A stretch of 64,000 nucleotides of DNA from contig CBDCTJ010000007.1 in NCBI GenBank assembly GCA_965222115.1, positions 2,240,001 through 2,304,000 on the forward strand. The letters are read 5' to 3'. The stretch is from Planctomycetota bacterium (GTDB lineage: Bacteria; Planctomycetota; PLA2; JAEUHO01). Below the pieces are notes generated by a model. That model was not told the origin of the DNA, did not search any database, and worked only from the letters and a program-made list of their open reading frames with translations. The translations under genes were made by a program, and so were the position numbers. Of the stretch, positions 33,329-60,198 are shown one piece after another (the stretch's first letter is position 1; each line of letters starts with the position of its first letter).

Positions 33329-33347
33329 ATCGAAGTCGAATGCTTGT

Positions 33348-33380
33348 ACCCGTCACCCGTCACCCGTCACCCGTTACCCG
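33348..33380 (+). repeat. Heptamer array (CCCGTYA)n; other copies at 34449-34501, 35148-35173, 35918-35941, 40686-40704
   Basis: Read directly; all in the same orientation. Confidence 0.9.
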
Positions 33381-33497
33381 AGTCCCGTGAGCCTCCTCAC
33401 CCTGAGTGGACATCTCCCTAAATCCAGCTGTAGCTCTTTGCTTGTGACTGCGAATGAAATGCAGCACACGGCGTGTGCGCTGGTGATCGGTCGCTAC

Positions 33498-33530
33498 GAA
33501 ACGTGCGGATTTTGCCCATACACCGTATCC
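33498..33530 (+). repeat. ~33-bp dispersed motif GAAACGTGTGGATTTTGCCCGTACACCGTATC, copy 1 of 10. Other + copies at 36524, 37407, 40027, 41134, 42772, 44298; - copies at 58904, 59647, 59706.
   Basis: Aligned by eye; several copies extend ~60 bp upstream (..GGTGACCGAGCACTACGCCAT..). Confidence 0.85.
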
Positions 33531-33556
33531 CCAAGACCGGCCTGGTGTCCCGCGAG

Positions 33557-34306
33557 CTAGAAATCCACCGTCACGCCGACTCGTAGCGTTGCGTCGCCGT
33601 GGGTGCGCCGCAACGAAACATTGGGACGTACGCGGGTTCGAAGCCAGCGGTCGTGTTCCAGCTCGCCAAAGAACGTGCCGAAGAAGTTGCCTGCACCCCA
33701 GCCCACAAGCACATCCGAGGGGTAGTGCTTTCTGGCTGAGACTCTCAAGGCTCCCGTCGCGACCGGTAGAAGTGTTAGCGCACCATCGAGCCACGGGCGC
33801 ACGTCGCGCCGAACACGAGAACGTTTCAGTGCGTATCGAAGGGACGCGGCGCTCCACGCTGTGTGCGACGTGTGGCCGGAGTAAAAACTCAGGTGGTTCT
33901 CTCCATTTGGACGTCGTCGATGCCACAACGCCTTGAAGGGTCGATTGAGCGCCTCGTTTGCCACGCCTGTCGATACGGTGCCCACGAAGGGATCCCACGA
34001 TTGGTACCGCGCACTCTCAACGCCGGAAACGGTCAACGCTCCTAGAACCGATCCACGCAGCAACGCGTCGCTGGCCCGCTCGGCAGCGTCGGTATCACCG
34101 TCGGCAAACTCATCGGAGATATCGTGATCCAAGTCGGCTGCATCGATCGCGATCCCCGCGACAATCGGCGCCCAGGTTCGCCAGTCGGTCGCTGCCGTCT
34201 GCAGTGCTTTCGAGTGTGTCGGCGTCCACCCAGTCGATGAGCACCCGCCCAGCAACAACGCTGACCAGCCGACCCACCACACCATTCGCGTTCGCCCGTC
34301 AGGCAT
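33557..34306 (-). CDS. PAP2-family phosphatase, putative lipoprotein
   Basis: K......RRRP, SFYSGH, R....KHYPSDV motifs; lipobox LLGGC. Confidence 0.88.
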   Translation of the reverse strand: MPDGRTRMVWWVGWSALLLGGCSSTGWTPTHSKALQTAATDWRTWAPIVAGIAIDAADLDHDISDEFADGDTDAAERASDALLRGSVLGALTVSGVESARYQSWDPFVGTVSTGVANEALNRPFKALWHRRRPNGENHLSFYSGHTSHTAWSAASLRYALKRSRVRRDVRPWLDGALTLLPVATGALRVSARKHYPSDVLVGWGAGNFFGTFFGELEHDRWLRTRVRPNVSLRRTHGDATLRVGVTVDF

Positions 34307-34541
34307 GTTGGTATCTCGCCTCCCAACGCGCAGTGTACGAGTAAGCTACTGCGGCAGGGGGCCGTTGGCACGAATTTCGAATGCAGTGGTACAGCTTCCA
34401 TAAACAAGTAACGGGTGCAAATTTTCGTGGGTCATCCAGTAGCGCCCTCCCGTTCCCCGTCACCCGTCACCCGTTACCCGTACCCCGAAACCCGTTACCC
34501 GGTCTCAAGGTAGATCGCTCGATGAGCGATGCGTTCGGCGC

Positions 34542-34931
34542 TTAAGACGTGGACGGCCAAGGCTCGTCGAATCTTCGTTGAAGCACGAACAACATGGCGG
34601 CGGATCGCTCAAGGGTGCTCATGACGGCGGAGATTGCGGCCTCGCTGGCGAGTCCGAGTAGTAGCGCGTGATGTAGAGCTGCGATGGCCTCGGTGCATTC
34701 GGCGTGTGCGATGTCGTACGCTTTGCGCTTCTCGGCTGGCCGCCGCTTCGCCAAGCCCTCTGCGACATTGAGTGCCACGCTGGTACTTGCGCGCCTGAGT
34801 TGGTCGGCAAGTTTTGCGTGGCCACGAGGCCATGCGGCGCACAGGGCGTTGCATCCAAGCGCGGCAGCTTGCGAAGCACGGTAGACATCGAAGCGTTTTA
34901 GGTATTCGAGCGTAGAAGACGCGCTTGTCAT
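34542..34931 (-). CDS. Four-helix-bundle protein (23S rRNA IVS-like / Avd-like fold)
   Basis: FDVYR..LADQLRRASTSVALNVAEG..IAHAECTE signature; GGAG RBS. Confidence 0.85.
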   Translation of the reverse strand: MTSASSTLEYLKRFDVYRASQAAALGCNALCAAWPRGHAKLADQLRRASTSVALNVAEGLAKRRPAEKRKAYDIAHAECTEAIAALHHALLLGLASEAAISAVMSTLERSAAMLFVLQRRFDEPWPSTS

Positions 34932-35217
34932 GATGGAACTCCAGCGTGAAGGGATCGCAAGCCGCTTGCTCGCGTGTGCCCCTCGTTGAAAGAGCCGAAG
35001 GCGAAGGAGGGCACACGCGAGGGGGTCGTACAAACAAGGCCCCGCGTGATAGCGACAACCCGTTCTCATGCTGGAGTTCCATTACAAGCGGTGCCCGCGC
35101 GTACCGAACGCGCTGGTGCAACCGGCGGTGCTGTCCAAGGCCCTACCACCCGTTACCCGTCACCCGTTACCCGAACTCAAGGGTGATCATCCGAAGATCG
35201 ATTCGCGCCGCCTTAAC

Positions 35218-35325
35218 GTGGACGTGGACGTGGACGTGGACGTGGACGTGGACGTGGACGTGGACGTGGACGTGGACGTGGACGTGGACGTGGACGTGGA
35301 CGTGGACGTGGACGTGGACGTGGAC
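35218..35325 (+). repeat. Hexamer microsatellite (GTGGAC)x18; x4 at 35987-36010; single units at 34549 and 40750
   Basis: Read directly; each is preceded by TTAA. Confidence 0.95.
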
Positions 35326-35511
35326 GCGAATGGCAAGAACGCGCTAGTCGCATGCGTGCGACATTGGTAAGGTACCGAACTGATCGCTGTGTGACGTGAT
35401 TGCTCACTGGCAACACCCGCTTGGGAAGTGCTACGTGCATGCCCCTATTCGCCACAAGGGCGAGGGCACGCACTCGCATTCCCGCGGGTGTTTCCTCGTG
35501 GAGATTCTCGT

Positions 35512-35898
35512 ATGTCACACAGCAATCAGTTCTCGGTTACTTCCACCGCGGGTCGGCTTGAACGATTCGACGTGTATCGAATCGCACGGCGTGCCGCGGC
35601 TAGCACTCACAAACTCTGTGGATCGCTGCCTCGAGGCAACGCGGAGCTTGCAAGCCAAGCTCGACGAGCCTCGACAGCCGTCGTCCTTAACATTGCCGAG
35701 GGCATTGGACGTGCCGGGGCAGGCGCAAAGCACCGTTCGTTCTCCATCGCTCGCGGCGAATGTGTCGAGGCGTCGGCGGCGCTCGACCTCATGCAGGCGA
35801 TGGACATCCTCGCGAATGCGAGCGCTGCTCCAACGCTTCGCGACCTAGATCGCGCCCGCGCAATGTTGAATGCGCTCATTCGTCGCTGGAGGGAATGA
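35512..35898 (+). CDS. Four-helix-bundle protein (23S rRNA IVS-like / Avd-like fold), paralog 2
   Basis: FDVYR..LASQARRASTAVVLNIAEG.GR..FSIARGECVE; GGAG RBS. Confidence 0.87.
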   Translation: MSHSNQFSVTSTAGRLERFDVYRIARRAAASTHKLCGSLPRGNAELASQARRASTAVVLNIAEGIGRAGAGAKHRSFSIARGECVEASAALDLMQAMDILANASAAPTLRDLDRARAMLNALIRRWRE

Positions 35899-36007
35899 GG
35901 GGTGCGCATTCCAGGTTCCCGTCACCCGTTACCCGTAACCCTCATTCAAGGGCGGGCATCCAATGAATGATGCGCGCCGCCTTAACGTGGACGTGGACGT
36001 GGACGTG

Positions 36008-36402
36008 GACGTCGAGAGCAAATGGCTTTGCCATTTGCACGAGACCCTGAGTAAGCACCAGCGGATCTTTGATCCGCGCAGTGCGCATCGAAGGGTGGAC
36101 GTGAACGATCTGAGCCTTCCCTTTGCCGACTCGCAGACGACGCTCCACGTCAACTTCAACGGCCCCGGGGGGGGGCACGGGTCAATAGCCCAGTGTGAAG
36201 CGCAAGCGCAGCGGCGCGTAACGCTGGGTTTAGACGTCCCCAAAATTGGCCACCCTGAAAGGGTGGCGGAAACCCACGAACATCTACACGCGTAATCTCG
36301 CACAGACGATTCGTGATTTTCATGGCCCCGATTAGAGACGTGTTCGTCGTAAGTGGTTTGAACCCTCTCCCCACAACGCCCTCTCCCAGAGGGAGAGGGG
36401 GG
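36008..36402 (+). repeat. Modular palindromic repeat element, copy A
   Basis: GCAAATGGC-TTT-GCCATTTGC hairpin, GGCCCC hairpin, invariant 46-bp core 36184-36229, CCACCCT/AGGGTGG hairpin, CCCTCTCCC/GGGAGAGGG hairpin. Confidence 0.9.
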
Positions 36403-36658
36403 CTTTGACTTGGGAAAGACTGTGAGGCTAAGAGTTTGCGGCTCCCGTTGTCTTTTGGATTGCCTCAGCTGCGAACGAAACGCTGCGGACGGCGTGCGCG
36501 CTGGTGACTGAGCGCTGCTCCATGAAACGTGTGGATTTTGCCCGTACGCCGTATCTCGATACCTCCCCCAAAGCCCCATATTTCGGGATGCATCCAATGT
36601 CGCCCTGGAATGTGTCAAAAACTGATACAAAATCGCTCTCCAGTGAGATACTGAAGAA

Positions 36659-37003
36659 ATGGCCCACCGCGAATCAAGAAATGTCTCGTTGGCTCCGGCC
36701 CAAGATCAATTCGTAAAGGCGATGGTGGATGGGGGCCGCTTTCGTACCGCCAGTGAAGTTGTGCGCGAGGCGCTGCGTCTATTGGAAGAGCGGGAGCATC
36801 GCCGCTTGCTTGAGAAGTGGATCTACGAAGGCCTCACAACCAATGAAGAGGCGCGACTACCCGAAGCAATTAAGAAGCGCGCTCGTGAGCACTTCGAGGG
36901 CCTCTTGTCCGCGCCGCTCGCAGATGTTGAGTACGGCAACGTTGCCGAAGGTGCGTCCGCCATGGCAAAGCTACGATCCGAACTCGAATCGCAGTCGGAC
37001 TGA
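36659..37003 (+). CDS. parD: ParD-family (RHH) antitoxin
   Basis: NVSLAP..FVKAMVDGGRFRTASEVVREALRLLEERE. Confidence 0.88.
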   Translation: MAHRESRNVSLAPAQDQFVKAMVDGGRFRTASEVVREALRLLEEREHRRLLEKWIYEGLTTNEEARLPEAIKKRAREHFEGLLSAPLADVEYGNVAEGASAMAKLRSELESQSD

Positions 37004-37308
37004 GTTTCACGAGCTATCAACTAACCACCACAGCGGAAGAAGATCTACGCGTTGCTCTACAGTTTGTTGCCAAGCGAGACGGAGTCGACCGGGCACTCCG
37101 CGTGCACAACCGATTCCTCGAGACGTTTAGCGCCATCGCAGAAATGCCACGCATCGGGTACGTGCGACCGGGCTTGACAGGGAATCGCTTTCGTTGGTAC
37201 ACCGTATTCAAGTGGGTTGTGATCTACGACCCCGTGGGTTCACCCATCACGATTCTCCGAGTCTTGCACAGCGCTCAAGAACTAGACCGCATACTTGATG
37301 AAGACTAG
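37000..37308 (+). CDS. parE: ParE/RelE-family toxin lacking a canonical start codon
   Basis: In-frame SYQLTTTAEEDL..IAEMPRIG..R..VIYD..ITILRVLHSAQEL. Only CTG (37000) or ACG (37009) is available before the conserved N-terminus. Confidence 0.75.
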   Translation: MSFTSYQLTTTAEEDLRVALQFVAKRDGVDRALRVHNRFLETFSAIAEMPRIGYVRPGLTGNRFRWYTVFKWVVIYDPVGSPITILRVLHSAQELDRILDED

Positions 37309-37448
37309 ATGCAAGTGTGAGCTTTCTTGTCCCTGGTGGACACTCGACAATTATTCGCAAGTCAACGTCCGCGACGTTACTCGAATCGATCGCCGAACTT
37401 CTTCGCGAAACGTGTGGATTTTGCCCGTACACCGTATTCTCCATTCCC

Positions 37449-39851
37449 ATGAAGATCAATCGGACGCTTCGCGTGGCCATAGCCCTATTGTTTCTCGGGG
37501 CGTTGGGTTTCAGCTCGGCACATGGCAAAGACGTCGAAGTTTCAAAAGCCTGGGAACGCAACTGGAAACAGATTGAGCGTCATGACGTGCTTGAACTGGG
37601 CGGCATGAACACCAAGAAGGCCGCGCTTCGGGCGCTTCCGTTTTGGCTGGGGCAAACGGGGCTCATCGCACGCATGGATCGCGAGAAGCTTCGCTATGTC
37701 GTCACGGGCGTGACGAAGGGTTCACCGTCCGATGGGCTCATCAAAGAGGGCGATGTACTTGTGGGTGCAAATGGGAAGGCATTCGCGCGTCCAGAGAGTT
37801 ATCCCGAGTTCGTGGGTCCGCAAGTGGCACTCGGCAATGCGATGCTTGAGAGCTGGGGCAAGCACCAAGGGCAGTTCAAGCTCGACGTTGTGCGTGACGG
37901 CAAGCAGAAAGCCATCACCCTCACGCTTCCGGGTCGTGGCATGTTTGGGGCATCGTTTCCAGAAAAGGACGCGCTCGCCGACGCCATGATTTCGGCAGGC
38001 TGTTCGTTGCTTGTCGCTCGGCAGCTTCCGAGTGGTGCCTGGAGTACAGGCAAGAAGAAGGGTCGGAAGGCGCCCTCGTTCCACACAACATCCCTTGCGA
38101 CCCTCGCGCTTATGGCATCCGATGAGAAGCGTTGGCGTTCGGCGATTAAGCGTGCGGCGCACTGGCTGCGCGATCGCCCGCCGGCCAAACACTTTCTCTC
38201 ATGGCACTATCCCTACCTCGCCATTGTGTTGGGGGAGTACTACCTCCTGACCAAAGACAGCTCGGTGAAGCCGGTGTTTCAACGAGCCGCCGACCTCATG
38301 GTGGAAGGTCAGTTTGACTATTACGGCTCCGGACATTCGTCGTATACCGGCAACTATCGTGGCAATGGGATTTCTGTGTGTACGACTCACGTGCTGCTCG
38401 GATTGGCCTATGCCAAGCGGTGTGGCGCCAAGGTGCCCAGCGAAGTCTTGGGCAACACGATGGATCACATTGAACGCATCAGCCCGCACGGCGGCGTGCC
38501 TTACGTCATTTGGGGACGCACCGAGAAGGCCTTGAAGGAGCCGCCAACCACACCCAACAAGCGCAACGAACACGCCACGCGAACAGGAACGGCACTCATT
38601 GCGTTTCGAATGCTTGATGGTCATCCGGCCCATCAAAAGCGCATGAGTGACTTCCTCGCGCGCAATAGCGACTACATGGACAACGGCCATGCCACCGCCA
38701 ACACCCTCAGTTGGTTGTGGGGCTCTTGGGGGTTGGCGTGTGGCGATTCCAAAGGATTCGCCGATCACATGCGGCGGCGCGCGTGGTGGATTGCACTCAA
38801 GTGGCGACACGACGCGGGCACCATGTCGCAGCCCGCCGAGTGCGTGAACTTTCGCGGTTCCGATCATGCGCTCGGGCCCCACGCCGATGTTGCGTGTCAA
38901 GTCGCAGTGTTGGCCGCACCGCGTCGCACATTGCTCGCCACGGGTCGTGCGGATCGCAGCACCACAAGCGCGTCGGCTGATTCCAAGCGTCGCCTTGTTT
39001 CGCTCGCGCGTTGGGACCATCACCACGGACGGTTGCGTCGCCTTGATCTCATTCCTGCACTGATCAAGAAGAAGGTGCCATTGCTTGCGGACGTTCGAAA
39101 CGATCTTGCCGCATTAGATCCCGATAAGCCAAGTGAGTGGTCCAGGGGATACGAAAAGGTGGCCAAGCGGCTTCCGAAGTTGTGTCGTCAATTGCAGGCC
39201 GCTGCCAAGAACGAATATGACAAGCGCGCATGCGTTCTGCTCGCCACCGCGATTCGACCGAGCATCGACGTCAAACTCACACCCAAAGGCCTCCGCGTGC
39301 GCGGTCGCGTTGAGCAGATTCCCTTCGGCAGTGTGTCACTGCGACTCGTGTTTGATACAGGCGGGAAGGGCCGCGCTTCGGTTCGCAAGCTCCCCGCCAA
39401 CATCGAGGGCAATGCGAAAGGCGGACCGCTTGACCGGGCCAAGCACGAAGCGTTTAGGACCGTTCTCAAGCTCAAGGGCAAGGCGCCTACGCTGATCGAT
39501 TTGCCGGCGACATGTCATATGGAGTGGCAGGGTGTGACGCTCGCGTTTCCGGTGCGCATTCAACACGGAACCAACCCGCATCGCTTCGCCTTCGCCCATC
39601 GCCAACCCCTCATTCGCGTGCCGCTCAAGATCACGCAGTGGGGCAACGAGGGTGTGTTGCTCAGTGGCGGTCTTCGTGACCGTTTGACTTTGAGCTGCAA
39701 TCAAGTCGGCGCGCTCGATGGTGGCGCCTGGCGACTTCTCAAGCGCGAAGAACGCACCAAGAAGTTCCCGCCAAATTCAAAGGTCTGGTGTTCGCTCTAC
39801 GACTTGGGATTTCATCGTCCGTTTGTGCACCAGGTGCAGGCGTGGAAGTAG
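37449..39851 (+). CDS. Secreted PDZ + alpha/alpha-barrel protein (DUF6288-like)
   Basis: Signal peptide; LGQTGL..V..V.KGSPSDGLIKEGDVL.GANG PDZ; QLPSGAW, SWHY..IVLGEYYLLTKD. Confidence 0.7.
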   Translation: MKINRTLRVAIALLFLGALGFSSAHGKDVEVSKAWERNWKQIERHDVLELGGMNTKKAALRALPFWLGQTGLIARMDREKLRYVVTGVTKGSPSDGLIKEGDVLVGANGKAFARPESYPEFVGPQVALGNAMLESWGKHQGQFKLDVVRDGKQKAITLTLPGRGMFGASFPEKDALADAMISAGCSLLVARQLPSGAWSTGKKKGRKAPSFHTTSLATLALMASDEKRWRSAIKRAAHWLRDRPPAKHFLSWHYPYLAIVLGEYYLLTKDSSVKPVFQRAADLMVEGQFDYYGSGHSSYTGNYRGNGISVCTTHVLLGLAYAKRCGAKVPSEVLGNTMDHIERISPHGGVPYVIWGRTEKALKEPPTTPNKRNEHATRTGTALIAFRMLDGHPAHQKRMSDFLARNSDYMDNGHATANTLSWLWGSWGLACGDSKGFADHMRRRAWWIALKWRHDAGTMSQPAECVNFRGSDHALGPHADVACQVAVLAAPRRTLLATGRADRSTTSASADSKRRLVSLARWDHHHGRLRRLDLIPALIKKKVPLLADVRNDLAALDPDKPSEWSRGYEKVAKRLPKLCRQLQAAAKNEYDKRACVLLATAIRPSIDVKLTPKGLRVRGRVEQIPFGSVSLRLVFDTGGKGRASVRKLPANIEGNAKGGPLDRAKHEAFRTVLKLKGKAPTLIDLPATCHMEWQGVTLAFPVRIQHGTNPHRFAFAHRQPLIRVPLKITQWGNEGVLLSGGLRDRLTLSCNQVGALDGGAWRLLKREERTKKFPPNSKVWCSLYDLGFHRPFVHQVQAWK

Positions 39852-40101
39852 GGGCTACCTCGCGGGTACTCCCGCGGCATTCTCGAAGTTGGCCGCATGG
39901 GCTCACGGTCAACACTTAAATCGAGCTTCCTCGCGCATAGCGGGCGCCTTTCTGTACTTCGTTGAGCATCCTGCGTGTGACTGCAAGCAATGCGTTACAC
40001 GCGCCGGAGATCGGGCACTACGTCATGAAAAGTGTGGAATTTGTCCGTACACCGTATCTCTCCAAGTGGATCGCAGATCCACGTAGTGCGCACCGAAGGA
40101 C

Positions 40102-40605
40102 CTATTTACGGTTCGCGTCAAATCGACTGAACGCAAAGGCCTCAATTCGCCCTGCAAGCTCGGGCCGTCCGACTAGAACAACAATCCCTGGTACGTTGCT
40201 AACGTCCTGAAGCTCAGGATCAATCGCGCAGTCACGGAAGAACTCAAGCGCTTCTTCCAGGCTCTCGTCTGCATGCCACGTTGTCATCGTAAAACTTGGG
40301 CCCTGAGTCTCTCTAGTCTCACGCTCAACAAGAGTTTCATCCATAAGGTCGTGAAGCAGCTCGCAGTTTGGTCCCCATGTACAGAAGTATGCGAGTCCCT
40401 GCTCGATTGCCCGATCAGCGAACGAATTCCAAACTCGACATGCGTCTTCCGCAACGTCACGCCCGTCCATCACCATGAACAAGCTGAAGCGACGCCCTTC
40501 AATTGGCAAGTCCGTGGGCCAGTCGCAAAGGTCATCGAGCATAAGCAGCATGTACGGTCGACCCGTTGTACTTGAAGCGCTTGTGAGTTGTCGCTGGACC
40601 ATCAT
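40102..40605 (-). CDS. Hypothetical acidic protein
   Basis: Globular-looking core (GLAYFCTWGPNCELLHDLMDE..MTTWHADESLEEALEFF). The longer ORF start runs into the repeat and is rejected. Confidence 0.7.
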   Translation of the reverse strand: MMVQRQLTSASSTTGRPYMLLMLDDLCDWPTDLPIEGRRFSLFMVMDGRDVAEDACRVWNSFADRAIEQGLAYFCTWGPNCELLHDLMDETLVERETRETQGPSFTMTTWHADESLEEALEFFRDCAIDPELQDVSNVPGIVVLVGRPELAGRIEAFAFSRFDANRK

Positions 40606-40752
40606 GCTGGGCAGTGTAGCTAGAGTCGTGGCGTAGGGATCGCAAAGAAGTGCCGGGGTCGAGTTTGTGGTCTTGCGTGACTGCCCCCGTTCCCCGTTAC
40701 CCCGACTCAACGGTGAGTGTTCGGTGATCGATTCGAGCCACTTTAAGACGTG

Positions 40753-41167
40753 GACGTCGAGAGCAAATGGCTTTGCCATTTGCACGAGACCCTGAGTAAG
40801 CACCAGCGGATCTCTGATCCGCGCAGTGCGCATCGAAGGGTGGACATGAACGATCGAGCCTTCCCTTTGCCGACCCGCTGGCGATGCCCCACGTCAACTT
40901 CAACGGCCCCGAAGGGGCCACGGAACAATAGCCCAGTGTGAAGCGCAAGCGCAGCGGCGCGTAACGCTGGGTTTAGATATCCCCTAAAAAGAGCCCACCC
41001 TGAATGGGTGGTGGAAACGCACGAGCATCGGGAAGCGGAATCTCGCATAAGCGATTCGCGGTCTTCATGGTGGAGATTGGAAACGTGTTCGTTGGAAGTG
41101 GCAGTTGCGGATGGTGACCGAGCACTACGCCATGAATGTGTGCATTTTGCCCGTACACCGTATCTCC
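40753..41167 (+). repeat. Modular palindromic repeat element, copy B
   Basis: First ~100 bp nearly identical to copy A; core 40927-40972; ends in the 33-bp motif. Confidence 0.9.
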
Positions 41168-41246
41168 GTATCCCACGGGTGGGCGTAGCCGGTACGCAGG
41201 ATCTCTGAATCTGGTGGGAAGAAACACGGAAACGTCTCCCAGACCC

Positions 41247-41720
41247 TTAGTACCCCTTAGGGAGGAAGATGCTGGGCAGATCATTCTGGCTTGCCATTTC
41301 AACCAGCCCACTGGTCATTTCTGGACACACGTCATTGTCGCGTTTCGGATTTGACGACTTCACGGGCTCGGTTTTATGCAAACTATCAACGGTTCGTGTA
41401 TCGCCAGGTGTATCGCCCGATTTCATCCTTACGAATCTGGCGCCGATCCCAACAATGACCGCAGTACAGATCACTTGTAAGATCGGGAGCAGTGGGTACT
41501 GAATACCATCATGCTTCTTTAGAAATACCGCCGCTATGAGTCCAAGGCCTAGAATGGTACCGCCGATGGCCTGCACGATTTTGACGCGAGCGTTTGCAAG
41601 TATGCGAATGACTTCAGCGGCATCATCTTCTTTGACTTTTTGGATAAGTATGTGTTCAGCGTTCATACACCACTCGATTTCTTCTGCCCTTGTGATGTGA
41701 TCCAGAGTTCCGTGCGCCAA
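41247..41720 (-). CDS. Small 2-TM membrane protein (start uncertain, possibly 41666)
   Basis: Two hydrophobic segments, AIGGTILGLGLIAAVFL and LLPILQVICTAVIVGIGA; follows the MraZ-like gene. Confidence 0.5.
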   Translation of the reverse strand: MAHGTLDHITRAEEIEWCMNAEHILIQKVKEDDAAEVIRILANARVKIVQAIGGTILGLGLIAAVFLKKHDGIQYPLLPILQVICTAVIVGIGARFVRMKSGDTPGDTRTVDSLHKTEPVKSSNPKRDNDVCPEMTSGLVEMASQNDLPSIFLPKGY

Positions 41721-42148
41721 ATCTCAAGCCGATTACCAAATGCCATGACCACCGCGCCGTTGGGATGTGTCGGTACGGCGTCCAGCACGCGGGCCCATCG
41801 CGGCAACTGAATAGTTAGGCGATCAGACTCAATGTGCAATCGCACGGGTCCGAAGTATCGAGTGGTCAGACCGGGCACCGAGGCTGGCGGCACGTCGTCG
41901 TCGAATTCGATCTCGTCATCCTCTGCTTGCTGCCACGGGCTCGTATCGGTGCCGGGCGCGTAGAGCACGAGCTTTCCACTCATTGCGACCCAGGCGACGG
42001 CGTCTTCGCCCTTTTTGAGCTCGTTGATCCACCGGACTTGCCGCGCAAACTCCAGCGGGACGCGCACACGATTTTGAGGTTCAACCTTCCGAAATTCGTG
42101 GCGGTGGGCATCGCTCACATTAACTCCTGCCAGCAGCTTGAGGTCCAT
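41663..42148 (-). CDS. Divergent MraZ/AbrB-like DNA-binding protein
   Basis: HEFRKVEPQNRVRVP and TIQLP..AVVMAFGNRLEIW...W resemble the two MraZ half-domains. Confidence 0.5.
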   Translation of the reverse strand: MDLKLLAGVNVSDAHRHEFRKVEPQNRVRVPLEFARQVRWINELKKGEDAVAWVAMSGKLVLYAPGTDTSPWQQAEDDEIEFDDDVPPASVPGLTTRYFGPVRLHIESDRLTIQLPRWARVLDAVPTHPNGAVVMAFGNRLEIWRTELWITSQGQKKSSGV

Positions 42149-53100: not shown

Positions 53101-53399
53101 GTCGCTTGAATGAACTCTTCATCACCGACGGTCTCACCGACAGCGATCTCATCAACTACGCCAACACCATTCGCGACAAGATTAGCGAAAACAAGCGCGT
53201 CATGCACCAAATCGACAACAACTCACCTGAACAGGCGCTCCTCGGCGACTTCCCCGGCGCCCTCGACCAAGCCGTCATGAACAGCGGCGAGGCGCACGAG
53301 AATCAAATGATGCAGTACCTGGGCAGCAAGGAGATCCAGGCCAAGTTTCAGCGCATCGTATTCGATATGCTGCTGCGGAAGCGGGCGAGGGCGCCGTAA
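50148..53399 (+). CDS. hsdR: Type I RM restriction subunit
   Basis: IDLVLFLNGIP...ELK nuclease motif; HSAGSGKS, DEAH, FTATP, QTLSRLNR helicase motifs. Confidence 0.96.
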   Translation: MNADAREAAFQNDIINQMCAAGWVPGKQDGYDRESALYSQDCLDYVKTTQPKTWEKYKKLYPNDPDKAFLTKLAAQLGKADPRASDKNLRTFGTLGVLRKGLRDKSASFKLCQFKPEVGLNPDTQAMYKGNILRVVPELVYSPYATNEHFEATGLKAKAWRIDLVLFLNGIPIVTMELKSEFKQAVENAKKQYKRTRLPKDPVTSKAEPLLTFKRGALVHFAVSQAEAYMTTKLAGNDTYFLPFNKGTKDGGAGNDIPEDIHTYATAYLWNDVLAPDNILQIIGRFIHLEIKETEEWGGRKKKKETMIFPRYHQWDLVTRLIAASREEGPGHKYLAQHSAGSGKSNSIAWTAHQLASLHDEQGEKVFHSVIVVTDRTVLDDQLQDTIYQFDHADGVVGRINREEGQGSKSEKLAKALEDSQPIVIVTIQTFPHVLDAIENSLTLKKRCYAIIADEAHSSQSGSTASKMKAVLTNEAADNPELVTGEDLLNERVASRRASPNLSYYAFTATPKSKTIELFGRVPNPSEPPSDTNKPRAFHIYSMRQAIEEGYILDVLKNYTSYKVAYNLAQRMDKADTEVDAKKAKVKLGQWVRLHDYNISQKVQVIVEHYREHVMGLLNGRAKAMVVTGSRKEAVRYKLEFDKYVQKRKYSRLRAMVAFSGEVKFSASDPHAAGLVGEAFTETGMNPGLKGRDMRKAFDTDEYHVMIVANKFQTGFDQPKLCAMYVDKKLGGLDCVQTLSRLNRTYPGKVTYVLDFFNDPEEVLAAFQEYYETAELLDVSDPNVIWDLFEKLRSAQIFQWTEVVQFTEVFFIKSKSNAAIINVCRPAVERWQARYQQAYDSVVFHKGQLDQAKARGDATAIANAESDVKDAQERLDALGVFKSDLVSFTRYYEFMSQIVDYESTDLESLSLYARHLAPLLREKTPDDDPIDLSSVQLSHYRLSFLRKQDLMLVKDGPTEGLSPAGDLGTGKGRSKEEEWLSQIISRLNELFITDGLTDSDLINYANTIRDKISENKRVMHQIDNNSPEQALLGDFPGALDQAVMNSGEAHENQMMQYLGSKEIQAKFQRIVFDMLLRKRARAP

Positions 53400-53464
53400 C
53401 GGGAACGCCATTCGTTAGCTATCAGACGTTCTGTTCACTTGAGGCCAAGATGCCAGCTCGCACC

Positions 53465-54634
53465 TTACTCTGTGTCAACTATCGCCCAAACTAGAGTCTT
53501 GGGATTCATCTGCCCTGAAGGCGGACTTGATTGTAGTTGACCACGTTTTCTCAGCTCGGTCACACGCTTCCTTATCTCGCTCGAGCTAATGAGACCAAGA
53601 CGTTGCTCTCGCGACAATCGTTCGATGACACGCACGATAAGATCCTTCCTCATGATTCGATTCCGAGCCTGATCGAGAATCAAGTCATCGAGTCCTTCTG
53701 GTTTATGTCGGAGTGCTACCGTCGCCGTTGGCTCGAAGAGTGGGAGATCCGTCTTTGCTGCTTGGGCAAGAAACTCGTTGTGCCCCTTGCACATGGCGTC
53801 GTTCATCAACGTTAAGGCCACCCGGCTGCGGCTGGCAAACACGAGGAAGTACTTCGGGACCTTGTGTTTCCAGCCCCCATAAACTTCGAAGAAGCACACC
53901 TCTTTAAGAGTATCGCGAAGTCGTTTCGTAAGCTCAAGCACAATCGAGCCAGCCTGATGAATTCTATCATTGTCGTCTGAAACCAATGGGCGCCACCAGT
54001 TACCACCAACGGCTGCATCAAGTCGGGCAGCATTCGCGCCTTGTCCCTGCCACTCTTCATAGTCCTCGTCGTCCACGTCCTCTAAGTCAGCAGTCTCCAA
54101 CGCGAGCGCGGCGCGGGCTCTCCGCACAAAGGCATGTGCATTAAAATTTAGTAGAAGCTCGATGCTTTGCCTCTCACGGACGAGGTTTAGGATGGACGTG
54201 ATGGCAGCCCAATCGAGTCCCGCTATCGCGCATGGATCCAGGTACAAGAACGTGGTTCTGCCCTTGGCAAGCTCACGTATGCGGGGGACGGCATCCACGA
54301 ACTCAGACTGTTTGAATTCAGCAAAGTCAAACTTCTTCATCTCATCGTTGAGCGCAGCAGCCAAGATCGGATTGCGCTCCACCACCAGTAGTCTCGGGGT
54401 GGGCGTGACTCCCGAATTCTCGATCGACTCGGCGAGGATTACGGGCGAGCCAACCTCCCCCGACTTAAATCGTCCTGGGCCCGCAAAGCCATCGACGAGC
54501 AAGATCGGTTGCTTTACTGCGCGCGAAAGTATCTGGAGATACGGCGGAATGTACTCACGTAAGATCCGGTCCTTTTGCCGGGACCAAGGGCGCTTCTCCT
54601 TAAAGAAGTCAAGGGGGTCCACGCTCGGTACCAA
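53465..54634 (-). CDS. tcmP: Three-Cys-motif partner protein (TcmP-like, Rossmann MTase fold + C-terminal wHTH)
   Basis: WS..K..IL..Y, VDGFAGPG..GSP, FLYLDP, ELLLNF, YFLVFAS; directly downstream of the DUF5131 gene. Confidence 0.8.
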   Translation of the reverse strand: MVPSVDPLDFFKEKRPWSRQKDRILREYIPPYLQILSRAVKQPILLVDGFAGPGRFKSGEVGSPVILAESIENSGVTPTPRLLVVERNPILAAALNDEMKKFDFAEFKQSEFVDAVPRIRELAKGRTTFLYLDPCAIAGLDWAAITSILNLVRERQSIELLLNFNAHAFVRRARAALALETADLEDVDDEDYEEWQGQGANAARLDAAVGGNWWRPLVSDDNDRIHQAGSIVLELTKRLRDTLKEVCFFEVYGGWKHKVPKYFLVFASRSRVALTLMNDAMCKGHNEFLAQAAKTDLPLFEPTATVALRHKPEGLDDLILDQARNRIMRKDLIVRVIERLSREQRLGLISSSEIRKRVTELRKRGQLQSSPPSGQMNPKTLVWAIVDTE

Positions 54635-54636
54635 GC

Positions 54637-55386
54637 TCAGATTCCCTCTGCCAATACGACTGGGAACTCACTCCAATGCCTTCCGTCAAGCATCCGACCG
54701 TTGGCCTTGTTAAATCTCCCACCCCATTGCTTGAAGAAAAACGGAACTGAGGCGGATACGCATTGTTGCTGAATCTGTCGGACCCAATCAGGGCTCATGG
54801 GTCGTGACTTAGCCCCGGATTCACCTCCAACGATAACCCAGTCGATTCCATCTAGCGGGATGCCTCGGAGTTCTCCAAGCAGCGGCTCGATTGACAAAAA
54901 TCGCAGCGCGGCAGGAACTTCTCGAAGTTCGTGGACTCTGTCAATAACGTCCATTCGCTCGACGCTTGTGCCGAACCAGACATTTGGTCGCGGCGAGTGG
55001 AGCCAGTTGTTGGGAATCGCCGCACGAACTCTATGCGGTCGCTTCGTCAGCAAGAGCCAATCCAAGTTGGGCGTCTCTTGAATCAGATTCCACAATCGAA
55101 TCTGGTCTTCTTCCGGCGCCATTTCATCGAATACATCTGCCATCGAAGCGCAAAAGACTCGCCTACGCACGCCTGCAATCCCGGCGTCTCGGTTCCATCG
55201 CAAGGGCTTTGCCCAATGTGCATCTCCAAATCGGCGGCGATCGCCGCGCTTGCCCCAGACGTTGTGTCCGAACCGTTTCGCAAACACTTCGGCGTAGCAG
55301 TTCTCACAACCCGAGCTCACCTTGGCGCAACCCCACCAGGGATTGAACGTGTCGTCGGTCCATTCGATTGGGCTATCCTTGGCCAT
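54637..55386 (-). CDS. DUF5131 / phage Gp37-Gp68 family protein (three-Cys, radical-SAM-like)
   Basis: IEWTD.TFNPWWGC.KVS.GCENCYAE, SMADVF, LLTKRP, SIEPLLG, WVIVGGESG, FFFKQWGG. Confidence 0.92.
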   Translation of the reverse strand: MAKDSPIEWTDDTFNPWWGCAKVSSGCENCYAEVFAKRFGHNVWGKRGDRRRFGDAHWAKPLRWNRDAGIAGVRRRVFCASMADVFDEMAPEEDQIRLWNLIQETPNLDWLLLTKRPHRVRAAIPNNWLHSPRPNVWFGTSVERMDVIDRVHELREVPAALRFLSIEPLLGELRGIPLDGIDWVIVGGESGAKSRPMSPDWVRQIQQQCVSASVPFFFKQWGGRFNKANGRMLDGRHWSEFPVVLAEGI

Positions 55387-55656
55387 TACAAACAATATCC
55401 TAACATGATGGAATGACAACGTCCATCGAGGGTGGGCGAGTCTGTTGATGGAGGAGGTGTCTCTCGGTTTGACCTTGTGGATTGAGCGAATCAATCATCG
55501 TACTCCCCACATGCTTGTCAGCGCGACACCTCAAATTATGCCCATGTAATTGACGCTAGACGTTCGGCAGCACCGCGAGTTCGTAAATGTCTAATTCATG
55601 GTGCTTTACAGGCGTCAGGTTCGAAATCGCTTGGTATCTGAGCGCATTCTCAAAAC

Positions 55657-55702
55657 TGACTAGTTTACTTGTCAATACTTATGATGACCAGTAAACTAGT
55701 CA
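55657..55702 (+). promoter_or_regulatory. Sigma70-type promoter overlapped by a perfect 13-bp inverted repeat (operator candidate)
   Basis: TTGTCA(55669)-N17-TAAACT(55692); arms TGACTAGTTTACT / AGTAAACTAGTCA. Confidence 0.7.
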
Positions 55703-55704
55703 AT

Positions 55705-56883
55705 ATGCCTCGAAGCGACCTCCTCCAAATCGCTCGCGACTCGTCCTACTGGGACCGTGAACCACCACCATCGATCCCTCGTCGCGTCGATCTTCCGAGC
55801 GAGTTGCGTCCCGACTTGGCGTTGGTTGTTCAGGGGGTGAGGCGGTGCGGGAAATCGACGTTGTTGGGTCAGCTTGTGGAGCGTTACGCGTTGGATCGGC
55901 AGAGGTGCTTGTTCATGAACTTCGAGGATCCTCGTGTGGCGGGATCACTCGACTTCGAGCTCCTACAGAAGTTGGTTGATGAGTTTGAGGCCAGCTTGTG
56001 TGACCCCGCTGCGAGGAACGCACCCGTGGCGTACTTCTTTGATGAGATACAGCATGTGGATGGGTGGCAGCGATGGCTTCGTAGTCAGCTTGATCGGCCG
56101 AGCCATCGTCGCTTTGTTGTGACGGGTTCAAACGGGCGACTGCTTTCGGGGGAACTTGGGTCGAGTCTTACCGGTCGGCACCTTGCGGTTGAGTTGTTTC
56201 CATTTGATCTGGAAGAAGTTCGGCTCAAGGATCCCACGATGGGGGTAAGGGAGTACCTGCACGCTGGGGGCTTCCCCGCGCCGCTTGGCTCAGAGGATGG
56301 TGATCGCATTCGCCGGACGTATTTCAATGACATCGTGGAGCGCGATGTGCGTGAGCGTGTGTCGGCTCGATCGAGTGCTCCGCTTCGTAGGCTAGGGCAG
56401 ATGCTCTTTGAATCGGCGGGGTCTGAACTGAGCATGCGACGGATTGCGGCAGCGCTCGGGATAGCGCCGGATACGGCGTCTCTATATGTAGGGGCATTGG
56501 AGGATGCGTATCTTGTGTTCTCGTGCCCGTTCTTTGCTTGGTCTGAACGCAAGCGCTCGATTCGAAATAAGAAGTATTATCCCGTTGACACAGGACTCAG
56601 GCGGTGTGTGGTCACGCGAACGGGTAAGGACCTCGGAAAGATGCTCGAGTGTGCCACGTACTTGAAACTTCGGAGGACGACAAGAGACATCTACTACTGG
56701 CGTGGTCGAGGCGAGGTCGACTTCGTAGTCTTGGTCGATGGGGCGCCCACGCCCGTTCAAGTGAGTTGGGAGGGTCCTTCGGAGCGACACATGGCGGCGC
56801 TCGATGAGTTTTATGAGGCGCATCCGCAAGCGAACGAGGCGGTTACGGTCACAGGGGAGTCGTTTGAACTGCTAGTGGGATAA
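55705..56883 (+). CDS. AAA_14 ATPase with DUF4143 (wHTH + PD-(D/E)xK-like) domain
   Basis: GVRRCGKST, FFDEIQ, VTGS, LTGR, GGFP, K.Y..DTGL, EVDFV. Confidence 0.9.
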   Translation: MPRSDLLQIARDSSYWDREPPPSIPRRVDLPSELRPDLALVVQGVRRCGKSTLLGQLVERYALDRQRCLFMNFEDPRVAGSLDFELLQKLVDEFEASLCDPAARNAPVAYFFDEIQHVDGWQRWLRSQLDRPSHRRFVVTGSNGRLLSGELGSSLTGRHLAVELFPFDLEEVRLKDPTMGVREYLHAGGFPAPLGSEDGDRIRRTYFNDIVERDVRERVSARSSAPLRRLGQMLFESAGSELSMRRIAAALGIAPDTASLYVGALEDAYLVFSCPFFAWSERKRSIRNKKYYPVDTGLRRCVVTRTGKDLGKMLECATYLKLRRTTRDIYYWRGRGEVDFVVLVDGAPTPVQVSWEGPSERHMAALDEFYEAHPQANEAVTVTGESFELLVG

Positions 56884-56962
56884 CGATAGAGATGCCTATT
56901 CGAGCGCGTGTGTATTCACCCCCTAACGCACGTCTTGGGTCACACGCTTTCTGATAGAGTGC

Positions 56963-58900
56963 TTGCCCGTGAGAATTCCAATACAAATACTCTTGGTTGG
57001 CGCGCTTGTATTGGCAGTCCTCGCGATTCGTTTGTCATTACAGCCACCTCTACCACGCTATCCCGAATTTAGATCCGTAACCGAAACCGAGAAAGAGGCC
57101 ATTCGCGCGGCGTTTTCGTTTGAAGAAAAACGCCTCACATTTCAGAGCACGAAGACGGCAGAACAACTTGCGGCGTCCTTGGAGCGCTTTCGTCCCATCG
57201 CTGTACTTGCGGCGTATCAAGATGCGTTTGATCGACTCAGGGGATCAAGCGTAAAGGAGATGTCCGCGACGTTGCTGGATCACGATCGTATGCCGATTGG
57301 AACTTGGCTGTCGAGCAAGCGCGATAGCAATCTCAATACCGTGCTGATTCGTATCCTGACCAATGAAGACGAGGCGTTCCCCATTCGCGATTCTGCGGCG
57401 GTTGCCCTTTGCTGGGAGGGGAACGAATCGGCTCTCAACGACCTATCCGATTTCGTCCTCGACATGAATGCGAGCCCTGACGTGCGCACGCGTGTGCTTG
57501 GGCGATTGCATCGTATTCGCGTTCGGCCGCCCAAGGCGTTCGACGTGCTCCTCCAGTTGCCGTTTCGGAATCACGACTTCTATGCGGCAGCCATCTTGGC
57601 GGTGGTCGGGGCGTCGCAGGCGCCACGTCTTGTGGCCGAGGGGCTTCTGCATGTTGGCGCAGACGATGATCTTGGCCATGTACTGGCCCTGGCTTCGGAG
57701 GCTATCGCTGCGGATGACACGCGCGTTGTCGCACTTGCACGGGTTGCGCAACGGCGAATCGTCGATGCCTGGCTTGCTAGGGATCTAGGTGACGAGCCCT
57801 TGCCGACGTTTCCCATGGAGGCTCTCTCGGGCGCCGACGTACCTGAGGATGTATTGACACGTTTGAAGGATCGGACCTACTCATCGCGTGACGCACTCCA
57901 TGCGCTTGGCGCCGTGTTTACGCAGTGGATCAGTGATCATCCCCAGGTGTTGGATAGTGATTTCGAGCGTCGATGGACGCGGCACACGCGGAGCGAGACG
58001 TACGAGCTTGCGCGCAAGACGCTAAAGGACAGCCTGGAGGGCCCAGTACGGTATGAGCCCTTTGATGTAGCTGCGGCGCACATTGCGAGTGTGACGAACC
58101 ATGAGGACCATTGTCCTCGCGTGTTGAACGCATTTGATCGTCTCGCACTATTGTTAGCCAAAGATATAGAAGGGCTTCGCGAGCCGGACGCAATCCTTCG
58201 ACAAATGCATCGTCGGCTTCTGCCACAACGGATTCGGTATCGATCCGGTTATGAGATGGATCCAAGTTCGTTTCTCTACAACGTATTGCATGACCGAACT
58301 GGAAATTGTGTGGGGCTGACGTCGCTCTACGTGGCACTTGGCCAGCGTTTGAATCTTCCGCTCGTGGCCGTGAGTTCACCGAGGCACGTGCATTTGCGCT
58401 GGAAAGATGCGCATACGACACTGGACATCGAACTCACTGATCGAGGTCGGATTCTTGATCCCAGCGAGATTAGCGGCAAACCCACGCGCGAATTGTCGAT
58501 GCGGGCGCTCGTTTCGATCGCGTTGTCGAATCGTTCCATGAGCTATGCACTATCGGAGCGACTAGCGGATACGCCCATGCGAAGACGTATAGCGAAAGCA
58601 TCTGCGTTGCGCGCGCAGGCGTGGGATCCGAAAAATGGCGGCGGCTATCTTGCACAGGCGATTTGTGAAACGATTGAGAAGAATCATGAGCGCGCCATCG
58701 AATGCGTAGAGCACGCCATGGCCTTAATGCCCAATGAAGCAGAGCCACTTGGAGCGATGGGGCAGGTCTTGCTTGAGCGTGGAGACATAAAAGATGCGCA
58801 AGCATGGTTCGAACGCGCGCTTCGGATTGATCCGGAAAATGAAGTGGCGAAACGTGGCATTGAGCTGTGTCAGACTCGGGCCCAAAGCGGTTCGAGATGA
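56963..58900 (+). CDS. Transglutaminase-like (SirB1/Transglut_core2-type) protein with HEAT-like and TPR repeats
   Basis: GNCVGLTSLY..LG..L.LP..V..P.HV.LR..IE; C-terminal TPR; N-terminal TM. Confidence 0.75.
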   Translation: MPVRIPIQILLVGALVLAVLAIRLSLQPPLPRYPEFRSVTETEKEAIRAAFSFEEKRLTFQSTKTAEQLAASLERFRPIAVLAAYQDAFDRLRGSSVKEMSATLLDHDRMPIGTWLSSKRDSNLNTVLIRILTNEDEAFPIRDSAAVALCWEGNESALNDLSDFVLDMNASPDVRTRVLGRLHRIRVRPPKAFDVLLQLPFRNHDFYAAAILAVVGASQAPRLVAEGLLHVGADDDLGHVLALASEAIAADDTRVVALARVAQRRIVDAWLARDLGDEPLPTFPMEALSGADVPEDVLTRLKDRTYSSRDALHALGAVFTQWISDHPQVLDSDFERRWTRHTRSETYELARKTLKDSLEGPVRYEPFDVAAAHIASVTNHEDHCPRVLNAFDRLALLLAKDIEGLREPDAILRQMHRRLLPQRIRYRSGYEMDPSSFLYNVLHDRTGNCVGLTSLYVALGQRLNLPLVAVSSPRHVHLRWKDAHTTLDIELTDRGRILDPSEISGKPTRELSMRALVSIALSNRSMSYALSERLADTPMRRRIAKASALRAQAWDPKNGGGYLAQAICETIEKNHERAIECVEHAMALMPNEAEPLGAMGQVLLERGDIKDAQAWFERALRIDPENEVAKRGIELCQTRAQSGSR

Positions 58901-59020
58901 GTGGGATTCGGAGTATGCCCCAATTCCACACGTTTCGTTCGGTCGTGCTCGGCCACCAACGCGCACGCGATACGCAACGATTCGTTCGCGGCTCGCGGCA
59001 CGCCGGGCTATCATGCGTGC

Positions 59021-59275
59021 ATGACTGACCAGGACGTCATCGCACGAATCACGACCGATCCCGAGATCTTTGGGGGCAAGCCCATCGTGCGTGGACGGCG
59101 ACTCGCGGTCGAGCATGTGTTGTCGATGTTGGAGGCGGGTGACGACATCGAGACAATCCTCGAAGGCTATCCCTGGCTAGAGCGTGAAGACATCTTGGCA
59201 TGCATTGGCTACGCGCAACGGATCGTGGCCAATGAACGTATTGAACTCAGATCCGTCGATACCGGTACGGAGTGA
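59021..59275 (+). CDS. DUF433-family antitoxin
   Basis: RITTDPEIFGGKPIVRGRRLAVEHVL..L..G..IL.YP.L..EDI.ACI.YA. Confidence 0.92.
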   Translation: MTDQDVIARITTDPEIFGGKPIVRGRRLAVEHVLSMLEAGDDIETILEGYPWLEREDILACIGYAQRIVANERIELRSVDTGTE

Positions 59276-59304
59276 GGCTATTAGTAGACGCGTGCGTGTG
59301 GGGT
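59272..59304 (+). pseudogene. 5' stub of a DUF5615/PIN-like toxin truncated by the repeat element
   Basis: GTGA overlap with the DUF433 stop; MRLLVDACVWG then joins repeat copy D. Confidence 0.65.
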
Positions 59305-59620
59305 GAGGGTTTACGGGCACGAACGACAATCCAATGGTCTCGCCAGCCGCAAACGGCACTTCTGACGAACACGTTTCAAATCGCAGCAATGGAGAACACA
59401 AGACACTCATGCGCGATGCCGCTCGCAGATTTCTGTTCGTTTCCGCCACCCCTACAGGGTGGTTCCATTTTGGGGACGTCTATACCCAGCGTTACGCGCC
59501 GCTGCGCTTGCGCTTCACACTGGGCTATTGACCCGTGGCCCCTCCGGGGCCGTTGAAGTTGACGTGGAACGCCGTCTGCGAGTCGGTCAGTAAGAGGTTC
59601 TGACGCTGCGCGGGAGACCG
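59298..59620 (-). repeat. Modular palindromic repeat element, copy D (inverted)
   Basis: Core reverse complement at 59484-59529. Confidence 0.9.
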
Positions 59621-59847
59621 TATCGCGGAGACGAGGGCACGGTGGGGGATACGCAGTACGGACAAATTTCAAACGCTTCGCGGTATATGGACCTGGGAAG
59701 CGGTGGGATACGGAGTACGCCAAAATCCACACATCTCGTTCGGCCGTGCTCGGCCACCAACGCGCTCGCCATACGAAACGATTCATTTGCAGCCCGAGGC
59801 AATCAAGAGCTACGAAATCAAAGCGCGTTGTTGTCGCCAGCTCTGAA

Positions 59848-60198
59848 GCCCCCCTCTCCCTCTGGGAGAGGGGGGTTGGGGGGTGAGGGTTTACGCATAC
59901 GAACGACGATTCAGTGGTCTCGCCATCCGCAAACGGCACTTCCGACGAACACGTTTCAAACCGCAGCGATCGAAAACACATAACACTCATGCGCGATGCC
60001 GCTCGCTGATTTACGCTCGTTTCCGCCACCCCTACAGAGTGGTTCCATATAGGTACGCCGTAACCCAGCGTTACGCGCCGCTGCGCTTGCGCTTCACACT
60101 GGGCTATTGTCCCGTGGCCCCTCCGGGGCCGTTGATGTTGATGCGGAACGCCGTCGGCGAGTCGACTAGTAAGAGGTTCTCACGCTGCGTGGGAGCCA
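59848..60198 (-). repeat. Modular palindromic repeat element, copy E (inverted)
   Basis: Core reverse complement at 60063-60108; includes the CCCCTCTCCC/GGGAGAGGGG hairpin. Confidence 0.9.

Follow-up and report, generated by a model that had tools for sequence, protein, structure and literature searches.

The 64,000-nucleotide stretch of DNA analysed here (hereafter the window, to which positions refer unless a contig is named) comes from a Planctomycetota bacterium and equals C7:2240001-2304000, where C7 is contig CBDCTJ010000007.1 of a seven-contig, 4.55-Mb assembly (GCA_965222115.1) that is 90% complete. From 33,348 to 60,198 it carries accessory genes interspersed with short repeat modules, and an earlier, sequence-only reading regarded this region as a cassette-like array produced by one gene-capture or shuffling platform. 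Our analysis leads to another picture. With a probability of roughly 55%, several repeat families have accumulated and have been copied locally in a plastic, defence-rich zone, one of them probably being moved by an enzyme resembling the tyrosine transposases associated with repetitive extragenic palindromic (REP) sequences (RAYTs), and recombination between the copies shuffles the genes. In this way, the tempting interpretation as a 'new integron' is split into testable parts.

The components listed by the sequence-only reading are all present, namely (CCCGTYA)n heptamers, (GTGGAC)n hexamers, several hairpins, an invariant 46-nt core and a motif of ~33 bp, and the modules were named A to J on the most complete copy (35142-36563). 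The core is exact in five of five copies (zero expected in 100 shuffles), and the ten copies of the motif counted earlier, here module J, resolve into seven strong ones on the plus strand, against zero expected, and three degenerate ones on the minus strand at 58.9-59.8 kb. Direct-repeat families occupy 33344-33529, 34412-36563, 37406-37447, 40006-40061, 40685-41175, 44049-44341 and 58901-60195. As had been stated, the modules are missing from the first 33 kb (none within 1-33343) and no recombinase gene was found in 33-60 kb; no PF00589 match was obtained in the window. Partial copies retain the order A-B-C-D-E-F-G-H-I-J, and module borders coincide with copy ends, which also agrees with the earlier description. 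The interval from G to J differs among all copies and holds H and I, nothing, I and a gene, or I and H. Of the inverted copies at 58.9-60.2 kb, one has a DUF433 gene between I and G and the other has the H hairpin, and this is the one clear case in the window of a gene at a module border.

What does not hold is the view of a single modular repeat family, because the copy numbers and distributions of the modules differ. There are 27 (GTGGAC)n arrays of at least three units genome-wide, 25 of them in C7:2.27-2.94 Mb (15% of the genome), 44 covariance-model matches to F on contigs C1, C3, C5 and C7, 37 matches to E1 (the first 50 nt of E) and 33 copies of J (26 nt, up to six substitutions allowed), whose upstream contexts are of five or more kinds. 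The modules are at least four separate lineage-specific families that form mosaics similar to bacterial interspersed mosaic elements (BIMEs), and for this reason no single capture platform can be recognised. Their differing behaviour over the genome means that the fixed order in the window reflects one mosaic block copied repeatedly. Composite copies are 68-88% identical across 217-429 nt, and subfamily-specific paired substitutions are common to five window copies and one at C7:2727k and are missing from dispersed F copies. A DNA search with the composite against 40 relatives gave just short or low-complexity matches, in four of them, and the only such match that was read (L002) proved to be coding. 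The covariance model of F, applied to 28 relatives of the same family, gave one marginal match (22.8-27.4 bits) in each of three and none in 25.

Modules A-D, often together with E1, are parts of units built around genes of four-helix-bundle (4HB) proteins of family PF05635. The window's two 4HB genes have scores of 57-64 bits with PF05635 and 56-67 bits with TIGR02436, and the genome contains 18 PF05635 genes, all intact and all located within C7:2,274,590-2,848,013. A hexamer array lies within 341 nt of 16 of these genes, and 19 of the 27 arrays are found no more than 600 nt from one. A strand rule is followed by all 18: genes of type A are on the same strand as the hexamer array, and those of type B on the opposite one, so the claim that gene orientation is independent of repeat orientation does not extend to the two 4HB genes. 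Type A (eight copies, 88-95% identical) and type B (ten copies, 83-94% identical) are ~42% identical to each other. Paralogs differ by a synonymous divergence (dS) of 0.64-0.70, and the ratio of nonsynonymous to synonymous divergence (dN/dS) is 0.06 among type A genes and 0.12 among those of type B, which shows them to be old and under constraint. The stop codon of the type A gene is covered by a hairpin. Moreover, the arrays are polar with respect to replication, with the G-rich strand leading in 25 of 27 arrays and in 15 of 17 clusters (p = 0.002).

Associations of this type were also found in eight other planctomycete genomes belonging to other genera, in which 23 of 29 PF05635 loci have tandem repeats with a period of 5-8 no farther than 400 nt from the gene, and the density of tandem repeats is 1.50 per kb by PF05635 genes versus 0.11 per kb in the remaining fetched flanks. 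In loci of four relatives (G038, G035, G001 and G013) one arm is the reverse complement of the other, and the flanks of 7 of the 10 folded loci of relatives pair better than shuffles (z from -2.3 to -7.3). Inverted arms around a 4HB gene were not found in the genome under study, in which arrays on both sides of a gene share a strand. Divergent PF05635 pairs of another relative, G026, show ~40% identity to both type A and type B. The 4HB units are a variant of a 4HB cassette similar to intervening sequences (IVSs), with arms that are direct arrays rather than inverted ones. Our literature searches turned up no paper linking PF05635 or four-helix-bundle genes with short tandem repeats; PF05635 genes lodged inside cas loci are reported in PMC3936711. 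A high-copy, direct-array, replication-polar variant is thus added to the poorly understood PF05635 cassettes.

F is a structured, REP-like element of ~150 nt with three hairpins, which contains the 46-nt core, and compensatory changes were observed in 7 of its 26 predicted pairs. All 19 copies found by BLAST are intergenic according to our own gene calls, and one match of the F model, at C7:2473263-2473407, has 51.6 bits. E1 is a separate repeat, a hairpin element of 50 nt that shows compensatory variants. The genome's only Y1 (IS200-type) transposase of its kind is flanked by inverted F copies. Its Y1_Tnp gene (C7:1411598-1412047, minus strand) has three of the 44 F matches around it, with F(+) at 1411440-585 on one side and, on the other, F(-) at 1412190-319 followed by a weaker F(+) at 1412504-668. 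This strong gene is single-copy at E up to 1e-10; a further PF01797 match, a weak one, is in a 373-aa frame. The protein of the strong gene passes the IS200 model NF033573 with 66.6 bits (cut-off 55). Among the 40 relatives a Y1 homolog was found in one, G038, which belongs to another family, and one of the three homologs there is flanked in the same way by F-model elements (41.9 and 27.6 bits). Within G038 C110:35921-38630 (L050, L095), a 4HB cassette with inverted heptamer arms lies 2 kb from this F-flanked transposase, and a long heptamer array is located between the two.

Since the Y1 transposase is flanked by F, a trans-acting factor plausibly moves F. We infer that F, and perhaps E1, would spread as single-stranded hairpin DNA with the help of a RAYT-like Y1 enzyme acting in trans. 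A drive in trans, proposed earlier for the array, is plausible for F and is not supported for the array as a whole; a RAYT or IS200 TnpA gene flanked by the same modules, which the sequence-only reading had suggested looking for, was found for the module holding the 46-bp core. The RAYT-REP arrangement is described in PMC3116915 and PMC3337134 (Bertels and Rainey) and in PMC5581495 (Bertels et al.). A candidate REP-RAYT-type pair with an unusually large three-hairpin repeat is thereby indicated in Planctomycetota.

F hairpin 3 and J each serve as the specific insertion site of one IS110 element. Type 1 (C7:2978.9-2980.5 kb and C7:364.6-365.6 kb) occupies the same loop position of F hairpin 3 in both copies, which are inserted into diverged F copies, and excising ~1.5 kb of the complete element restores the hairpin; the copy at C7:365 kb diverges after ~960 nt and looks truncated. 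Type 2, having subterminal inverted repeats (C7:2360-2362, C7:507-509 and C3:484-486 kb), is inside J in two of three copies, and the third stands beside a J-like word next to a hexamer array. IS110 elements that target REP sequences are reported in PMC11208160. Natural targets are now defined for two RNA-guided IS110 elements. Three near-identical group II introns of ~1.9 kb (reverse transcriptase frame of 515 aa; C3:80.9-82.8, C7:1003.7-1005.6 and C7:1984.5-1986.5 kb) were also considered as elements targeting F hairpins and were rejected, because they sit in a different repeat, at distances of ~55, 190 and 400 nt to an F-like copy.

J is an asymmetric, unstructured site of ~32 nt at the downstream end of spacers. 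Its 33 copies fold like shuffles (mean z +0.1), and the lack of any hairpin is in line with the earlier remark that these repeats lack the attC boxes. In 25 of 32 cases J is closer to the gene that follows than to the preceding one, whichever the gene strand (p = 0.002; hand tally on our own crude gene calls). Clusters of J exist beyond the window at C7:641-670 kb and C3:482-489 kb, among genes of CdiI, SUKH, GNAT, glyoxalase, DinB, ParE, DUF7684 and AAA_14. The DUF7684 paralog at C7:653242-653670 is 70% identical to the window gene, and J, 94% identical, stands at the same distance in both. Directly downstream of J at C7:645786 there is a tyrosine recombinase gene (C7:645686-646516) in three frames, truncated at its 5' end, with J read in frame in the first piece; it scores 19-27 bits on TIGR02249 (cut-off 265) and thus does not belong specifically to the integron type. 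The module-flanked IntI suggested earlier was not found in intact form: next to the arrays there is no intact integron integrase, one of six PF00589 matches having been scored on the IntI model, and what stands beside one J is this decayed recombinase. A degenerate J pattern had no matches in two public collections of genome and metagenome contigs, from which records of the same genome were possibly excluded.

The genomic position of the repeats was considered as well. According to GC skew, replication starts near C7:0.6 Mb and ends near C7:2.78 Mb, and the studied region therefore lies ~0.5 Mb before the terminus, being the first part of a ~0.7-Mb terminus zone that bears the same units. In six relatives from six genera the gene order matches that of the window from ~15.5 kb to a TPR gene (30280-32547), after which all six continue with genes that are found here at C3:26.9 to 0.2 kb; the called genes of window coordinates 32.6-80 kb have no match at that place in the six. 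Hence, synteny breaks off where the region starts, ~0.8 kb ahead of the first module. A single terminus-spanning inversion as the cause of this break was rejected, because the partner gene at C3:27.1 kb neighbours the C7:2175-2179 kb genes in G013 and G001. Orthologs are only 35-80% identical, so that breakpoints cannot be placed at module borders, and no evidence of genes gained or lost at such borders was found in these distant relatives or in run contigs of depth 2-6. Contigs of four sequencing runs from one study contain joints, such as those from 36558 to 37406 and from 37432 to 40027, with sides of 25-33 nt that lie in J, which most likely result from cross-mapping among J copies.

PADLOC recognised PDC-S11, PDC-S39, type I restriction-modification (RM), PDC-M30/M41 and PDC-S01 in 42.8-56.9 kb, an interval of lower GC content that is a defence island; the candidates PDC-M30/M41 correspond to a pair of TcmP (three-Cys-motif partner) and DUF5131 genes (53465-55494, minus strand) beside the type I RM genes. 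It follows from the defence families and the lower GC that the genes are accessory and largely defensive. The accessory character assumed in the sequence-only reading is borne out by ParDE, type I RM and four candidate defence families, and by the synteny break at which the region starts. Its statement that the genes and the whole RM block are bounded by modules was right in part: the block has F-G-J to its left and an inverted J-I to its right, whereas 44.4-58.9 kb is itself module-free, and heptamer and hexamer arrays are not borders of genes other than 4HB.

Summarizing these data, the following course of events may be proposed. The region would be the margin of a plastic zone close to the replication terminus that has been rearranged and is rich in defence genes, and here unrelated lineage-specific intergenic repeat families would have piled up and fused into BIME-like mosaics. 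A mosaic block of ~0.65 kb (A to J) would then have been copied locally at least five times, losing parts between modules. The repeats would not capture genes and would rather collect where insertions are tolerated, and the dispersed direct and inverted homologies may subsequently favour deletion, duplication and inversion of the intervening genes.

Several facts weigh against this account. The Y1 protein fails the NCBI RAYT model NF047646 (20.4 bits, cut-off 80), and F doublets are direct, not inverted as in REP doublets forming hairpins (REPINs), for example C7:2182512 with 2182722 and C3:138250 with 138824; the copies flanking the Y1 gene are the exception to same-strand pairs. F shows no replication-strand bias (14/22), and transposition was not seen for F, E1 or any 4HB unit. 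Modules D-E are 91-98% identical between copies and stand beside old 4HB paralogs (dS ~0.65), so that they must be constrained or homogenised, which points to function or gene conversion and not to passive accumulation. J is unexplained by accumulation, including its high conservation beside much more diverged DUF7684 genes, and its proximity to the downstream gene, together with co-oriented arrays at three loci of small accessory genes, one of them beside a decayed tyrosine recombinase, fits a junction site. Finally, repeats may be collapsed in an assembly of this completeness, with its seven contigs.

The alternative that survives best concerns J, which could be an att-type junction site of a site-specific cassette or island-accretion system, where segments join at the 3' end of J and the recombinase has decayed or acts in trans. 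We regard it as unlikely. The seven co-oriented J copies placed 0.9-3 kb apart at 33.5-44.3 kb, the two further clusters among small accessory genes, the adjoining position to the downstream gene whichever its strand, the frameshifted recombinase directly after one J, the retention of J at the same place by diverged DUF7684 paralogs and the varying GC of J-delimited segments (0.54-0.61) speak for such a site. Less compatible with it are the missing hairpin potential, a weak dyad symmetry (by eye), an irregular spacing in the other two clusters (0.17-10 kb) and the lack of an intact recombinase beside any J array. Solo J copies were rejected as attL/attR pairs, since the genes that follow them have no partial core at their far end. 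J is also the shared 3' end of several longer repeats, a property that fits a repeat terminus, too. We give low odds to any junction-site role of J, and it is rather improbable that this asymmetric, unstructured site joins segments in either gene orientation, producing the three arrays, and marks the junctions of an undescribed, non-integron stacking of accessory and defence genes whose recombinase has been lost or works in trans. Candidate recombinases would be the decayed tyrosine recombinase or the J-targeting IS110. Integron-like capture itself is at variance with the separate repeat families, the hairpin-free J, the mixed gene orientation and the missing intact integrase. A promoter of the sigma-54 or extracytoplasmic function (ECF) type was rejected for J, because the spacings do not fit the consensus sequences (by eye).

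It is similarly doubtful that the modules serve the host as regulatory or RNA elements (terminators, insulators, mRNA-stabilising hairpins, small RNAs) that are under selection and spread by duplication only. Compensatory hairpin changes in F and E1, the stop codons that open E1 in two frames ahead of a hairpin, the hairpin across the stop codon of the type A gene, the close identity of D-E copies and the intergenic location of all examined copies would suit such a role. An Rfam search of 30-64 kb, however, gave no match at E up to 1, and a DNA-level comparison detected the families in none of the 40 relatives, the covariance model likewise leaving 25 of 28 without F; therefore, they are young and lineage-specific. 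A Y1 transposase between inverted F copies in two distant genomes is also hard to explain by regulation.

Very little remains in favour of the idea, expressed earlier in the form of a drive by the local 4HB proteins, that these proteins attach to the hexamer and heptamer arrays and make them recombine with one another. It could be based on the tight, directional linkage of the 4HB genes with the arrays, on their strong purifying selection and on the fact that direct arrays flanking a gene would permit excision of a circle. Avd binds nucleic acid. This protein of diversity-generating retroelements belongs to the PF05635 family, according to PMC10053308. Against these points, nothing suggests catalysis by the 4HB proteins, which match PF05635/TIGR02436 only and have no nuclease or recombinase domain that could be found; genes other than 4HB are not bounded by the arrays; the dS of the paralogs (~0.65) indicates no recent burst; and no reverse transcriptase stands beside 4HB genes, all seven RVT_1 matches being elsewhere, six of them in two length classes read as group II intron types.

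Table 1. Modules and genes in the studied part of the window.
Feature	Position	Strand
Module A, solo (CCCGTYA)n heptamer array after the peroxiredoxin gene	33349..33393	+
Listed repeat feature	33448..33533	+
PAP2-family gene	33557..34306	-
A heptamer array and B-like hairpin, downstream of the type B 4HB gene	34442..34540	+
PF05635/TIGR02436 4HB gene, type B, one of 10 paralogs	34542..34931	-
A heptamers, B hairpin, C (GTGGAC)n of ~18 units; upstream of the type A 4HB gene	35142..35330	+
PF05635/TIGR02436 4HB gene, type A, one of 8 paralogs	35512..35898	+
A, B, C (4 units), D hairpin (36011-36045), E (36046-36142; first ~50 nt = E1)	35911..36142	+
F, three-hairpin REP-like element; invariant 46-nt core 36184-36229	36143..36292	+
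G, H hairpin (36361-36410), I, J copy 2 (core 36529-36554); ParD 105 nt downstream	36293..36563	+
ParD-ParE toxin-antitoxin pair, between J2 and J3	36659..37308	+
J copy 3, ~11 nt ahead of the likely ATG of the DUF6288 gene	37409..37442	+
DUF6288 gene; ATG start chosen by eye, approximate to 1-2 nt; longest open reading frame from 37317	37447..39851	+
Listed J-containing repeat feature by the DUF7684 gene	40006..40062	+
DUF7684 gene	40102..40833	-
Composite A-B-(one GTGGAC)-D-E-F-G-J5, without 4HB gene, H and I	40678..41168	+
Two overlapping open reading frames, no family match	41247..42148	-
Listed repeat feature	42774..42807	+
PDC-S11 candidate defence gene	42817..43782	-
Composite F-G-J7, left border of the defence block	44049..44333	+
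Module-free defence block: PDC-S39/DUF4209, type I RM (M, S, R), TcmP + DUF5131 (PDC-M30/M41), AAA_14-DUF4143 (PDC-S01), transglutaminase-TPR	44450..58900	
Inverted I-J bordering the defence block on its right; 19 nt separate it from the transglutaminase-TPR gene end	58901..59000	-
DUF433 gene, between I and G, at the place of the H hairpin in other copies	59021..59275	+
Inverted G-F-E' copy; F by model 59420-59569	59297..59616	-
Inverted degenerate J (59649-59674) and inverted J-I (59703-59801)	59649..59801	-
Second inverted G-F-E' copy; F by model 60000-60148; H hairpin ahead, ~59850-59880	59877..60195	-

Some neighbouring features deserve mention in their own right. Three arrays of 15-nt tandem repeats (29424-29498, 29770-29829 and 29916-29975), unrelated to modules A-J, are situated just upstream of the TPR gene. 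The frame of the peroxiredoxin (AhpC/TSA) gene at 32599-33264 on the plus strand is continuous if an in-frame TGA at codon 70 is read through, and this codon stands at what we take to be the position of the peroxidatic Cys in the family motif; the gene product is a candidate selenocysteine peroxiredoxin. Contig C6 (48 kb), with a GC content of 0.397 versus 0.55-0.59 in the other contigs, may be foreign or a contaminant.

Among known systems, integrons offer the most obvious comparison. Clusters of attC sites lacking integrases (CALINs) consist of sites that are imperfect palindromes folding as single strands and having R and L boxes. The J arrays resemble them in that co-oriented conserved sites lie between small accessory genes, including toxin-antitoxin pairs, with no integrase nearby. 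They differ because J is unstructured and asymmetric, unlike attC, the genes between the sites are on both strands, the segments hold one to three genes, no integron integrase was found and some junctions have no site. BOX elements of Streptococcus pneumoniae, which have a modular boxA-boxB(n)-boxC structure, are similar to the mosaics as modular intergenic repeats of fixed order with a variable number of internal units, but their sequences are unrelated, and some of the present modules are linked to a gene family and a transposase.

The 4HB units may be compared with the IVS of 23S rRNA. In Coxiella burnetii, as described in PMC4990558, an IVS with an open reading frame has a 28-bp stem with an S23p gene in the loop. 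In both cases a small PF05635 gene belongs to a short, self-contained, repeat-bounded unit, and the inverted arms found in other planctomycetes could form a stem of ~30 bp, close to that of the IVS. Unlike the IVS, which belongs to rRNA, the 4HB units sit between protein genes; the genome studied here has direct arrays built of different words, a heptamer and a hexamer, two paralog types have a fixed opposite orientation in 18 copies, and all units are near the terminus and polar with replication.

The closest parallels are the REP, BIME and REPIN-RAYT systems of the papers cited above, with which the modules share structured extragenic repeats in tens of copies and several motifs that form mosaics of fixed order. 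A single-copy Y1 transposase gene between inverted repeat copies and the co-occurrence of repeat and transposase in the same genomes are further points in common with REPIN-RAYT systems. F and J are IS110 targets, as REPs are for IS621 (PMC11208160). The differences lie in the size of F, ~150 nt with three hairpins versus a palindrome of 20-40 nt, in its direct rather than inverted doublets, in the Y1 protein, which fits the IS200 model and not NCBI's RAYT model, and in the host phylum, here Planctomycetota.

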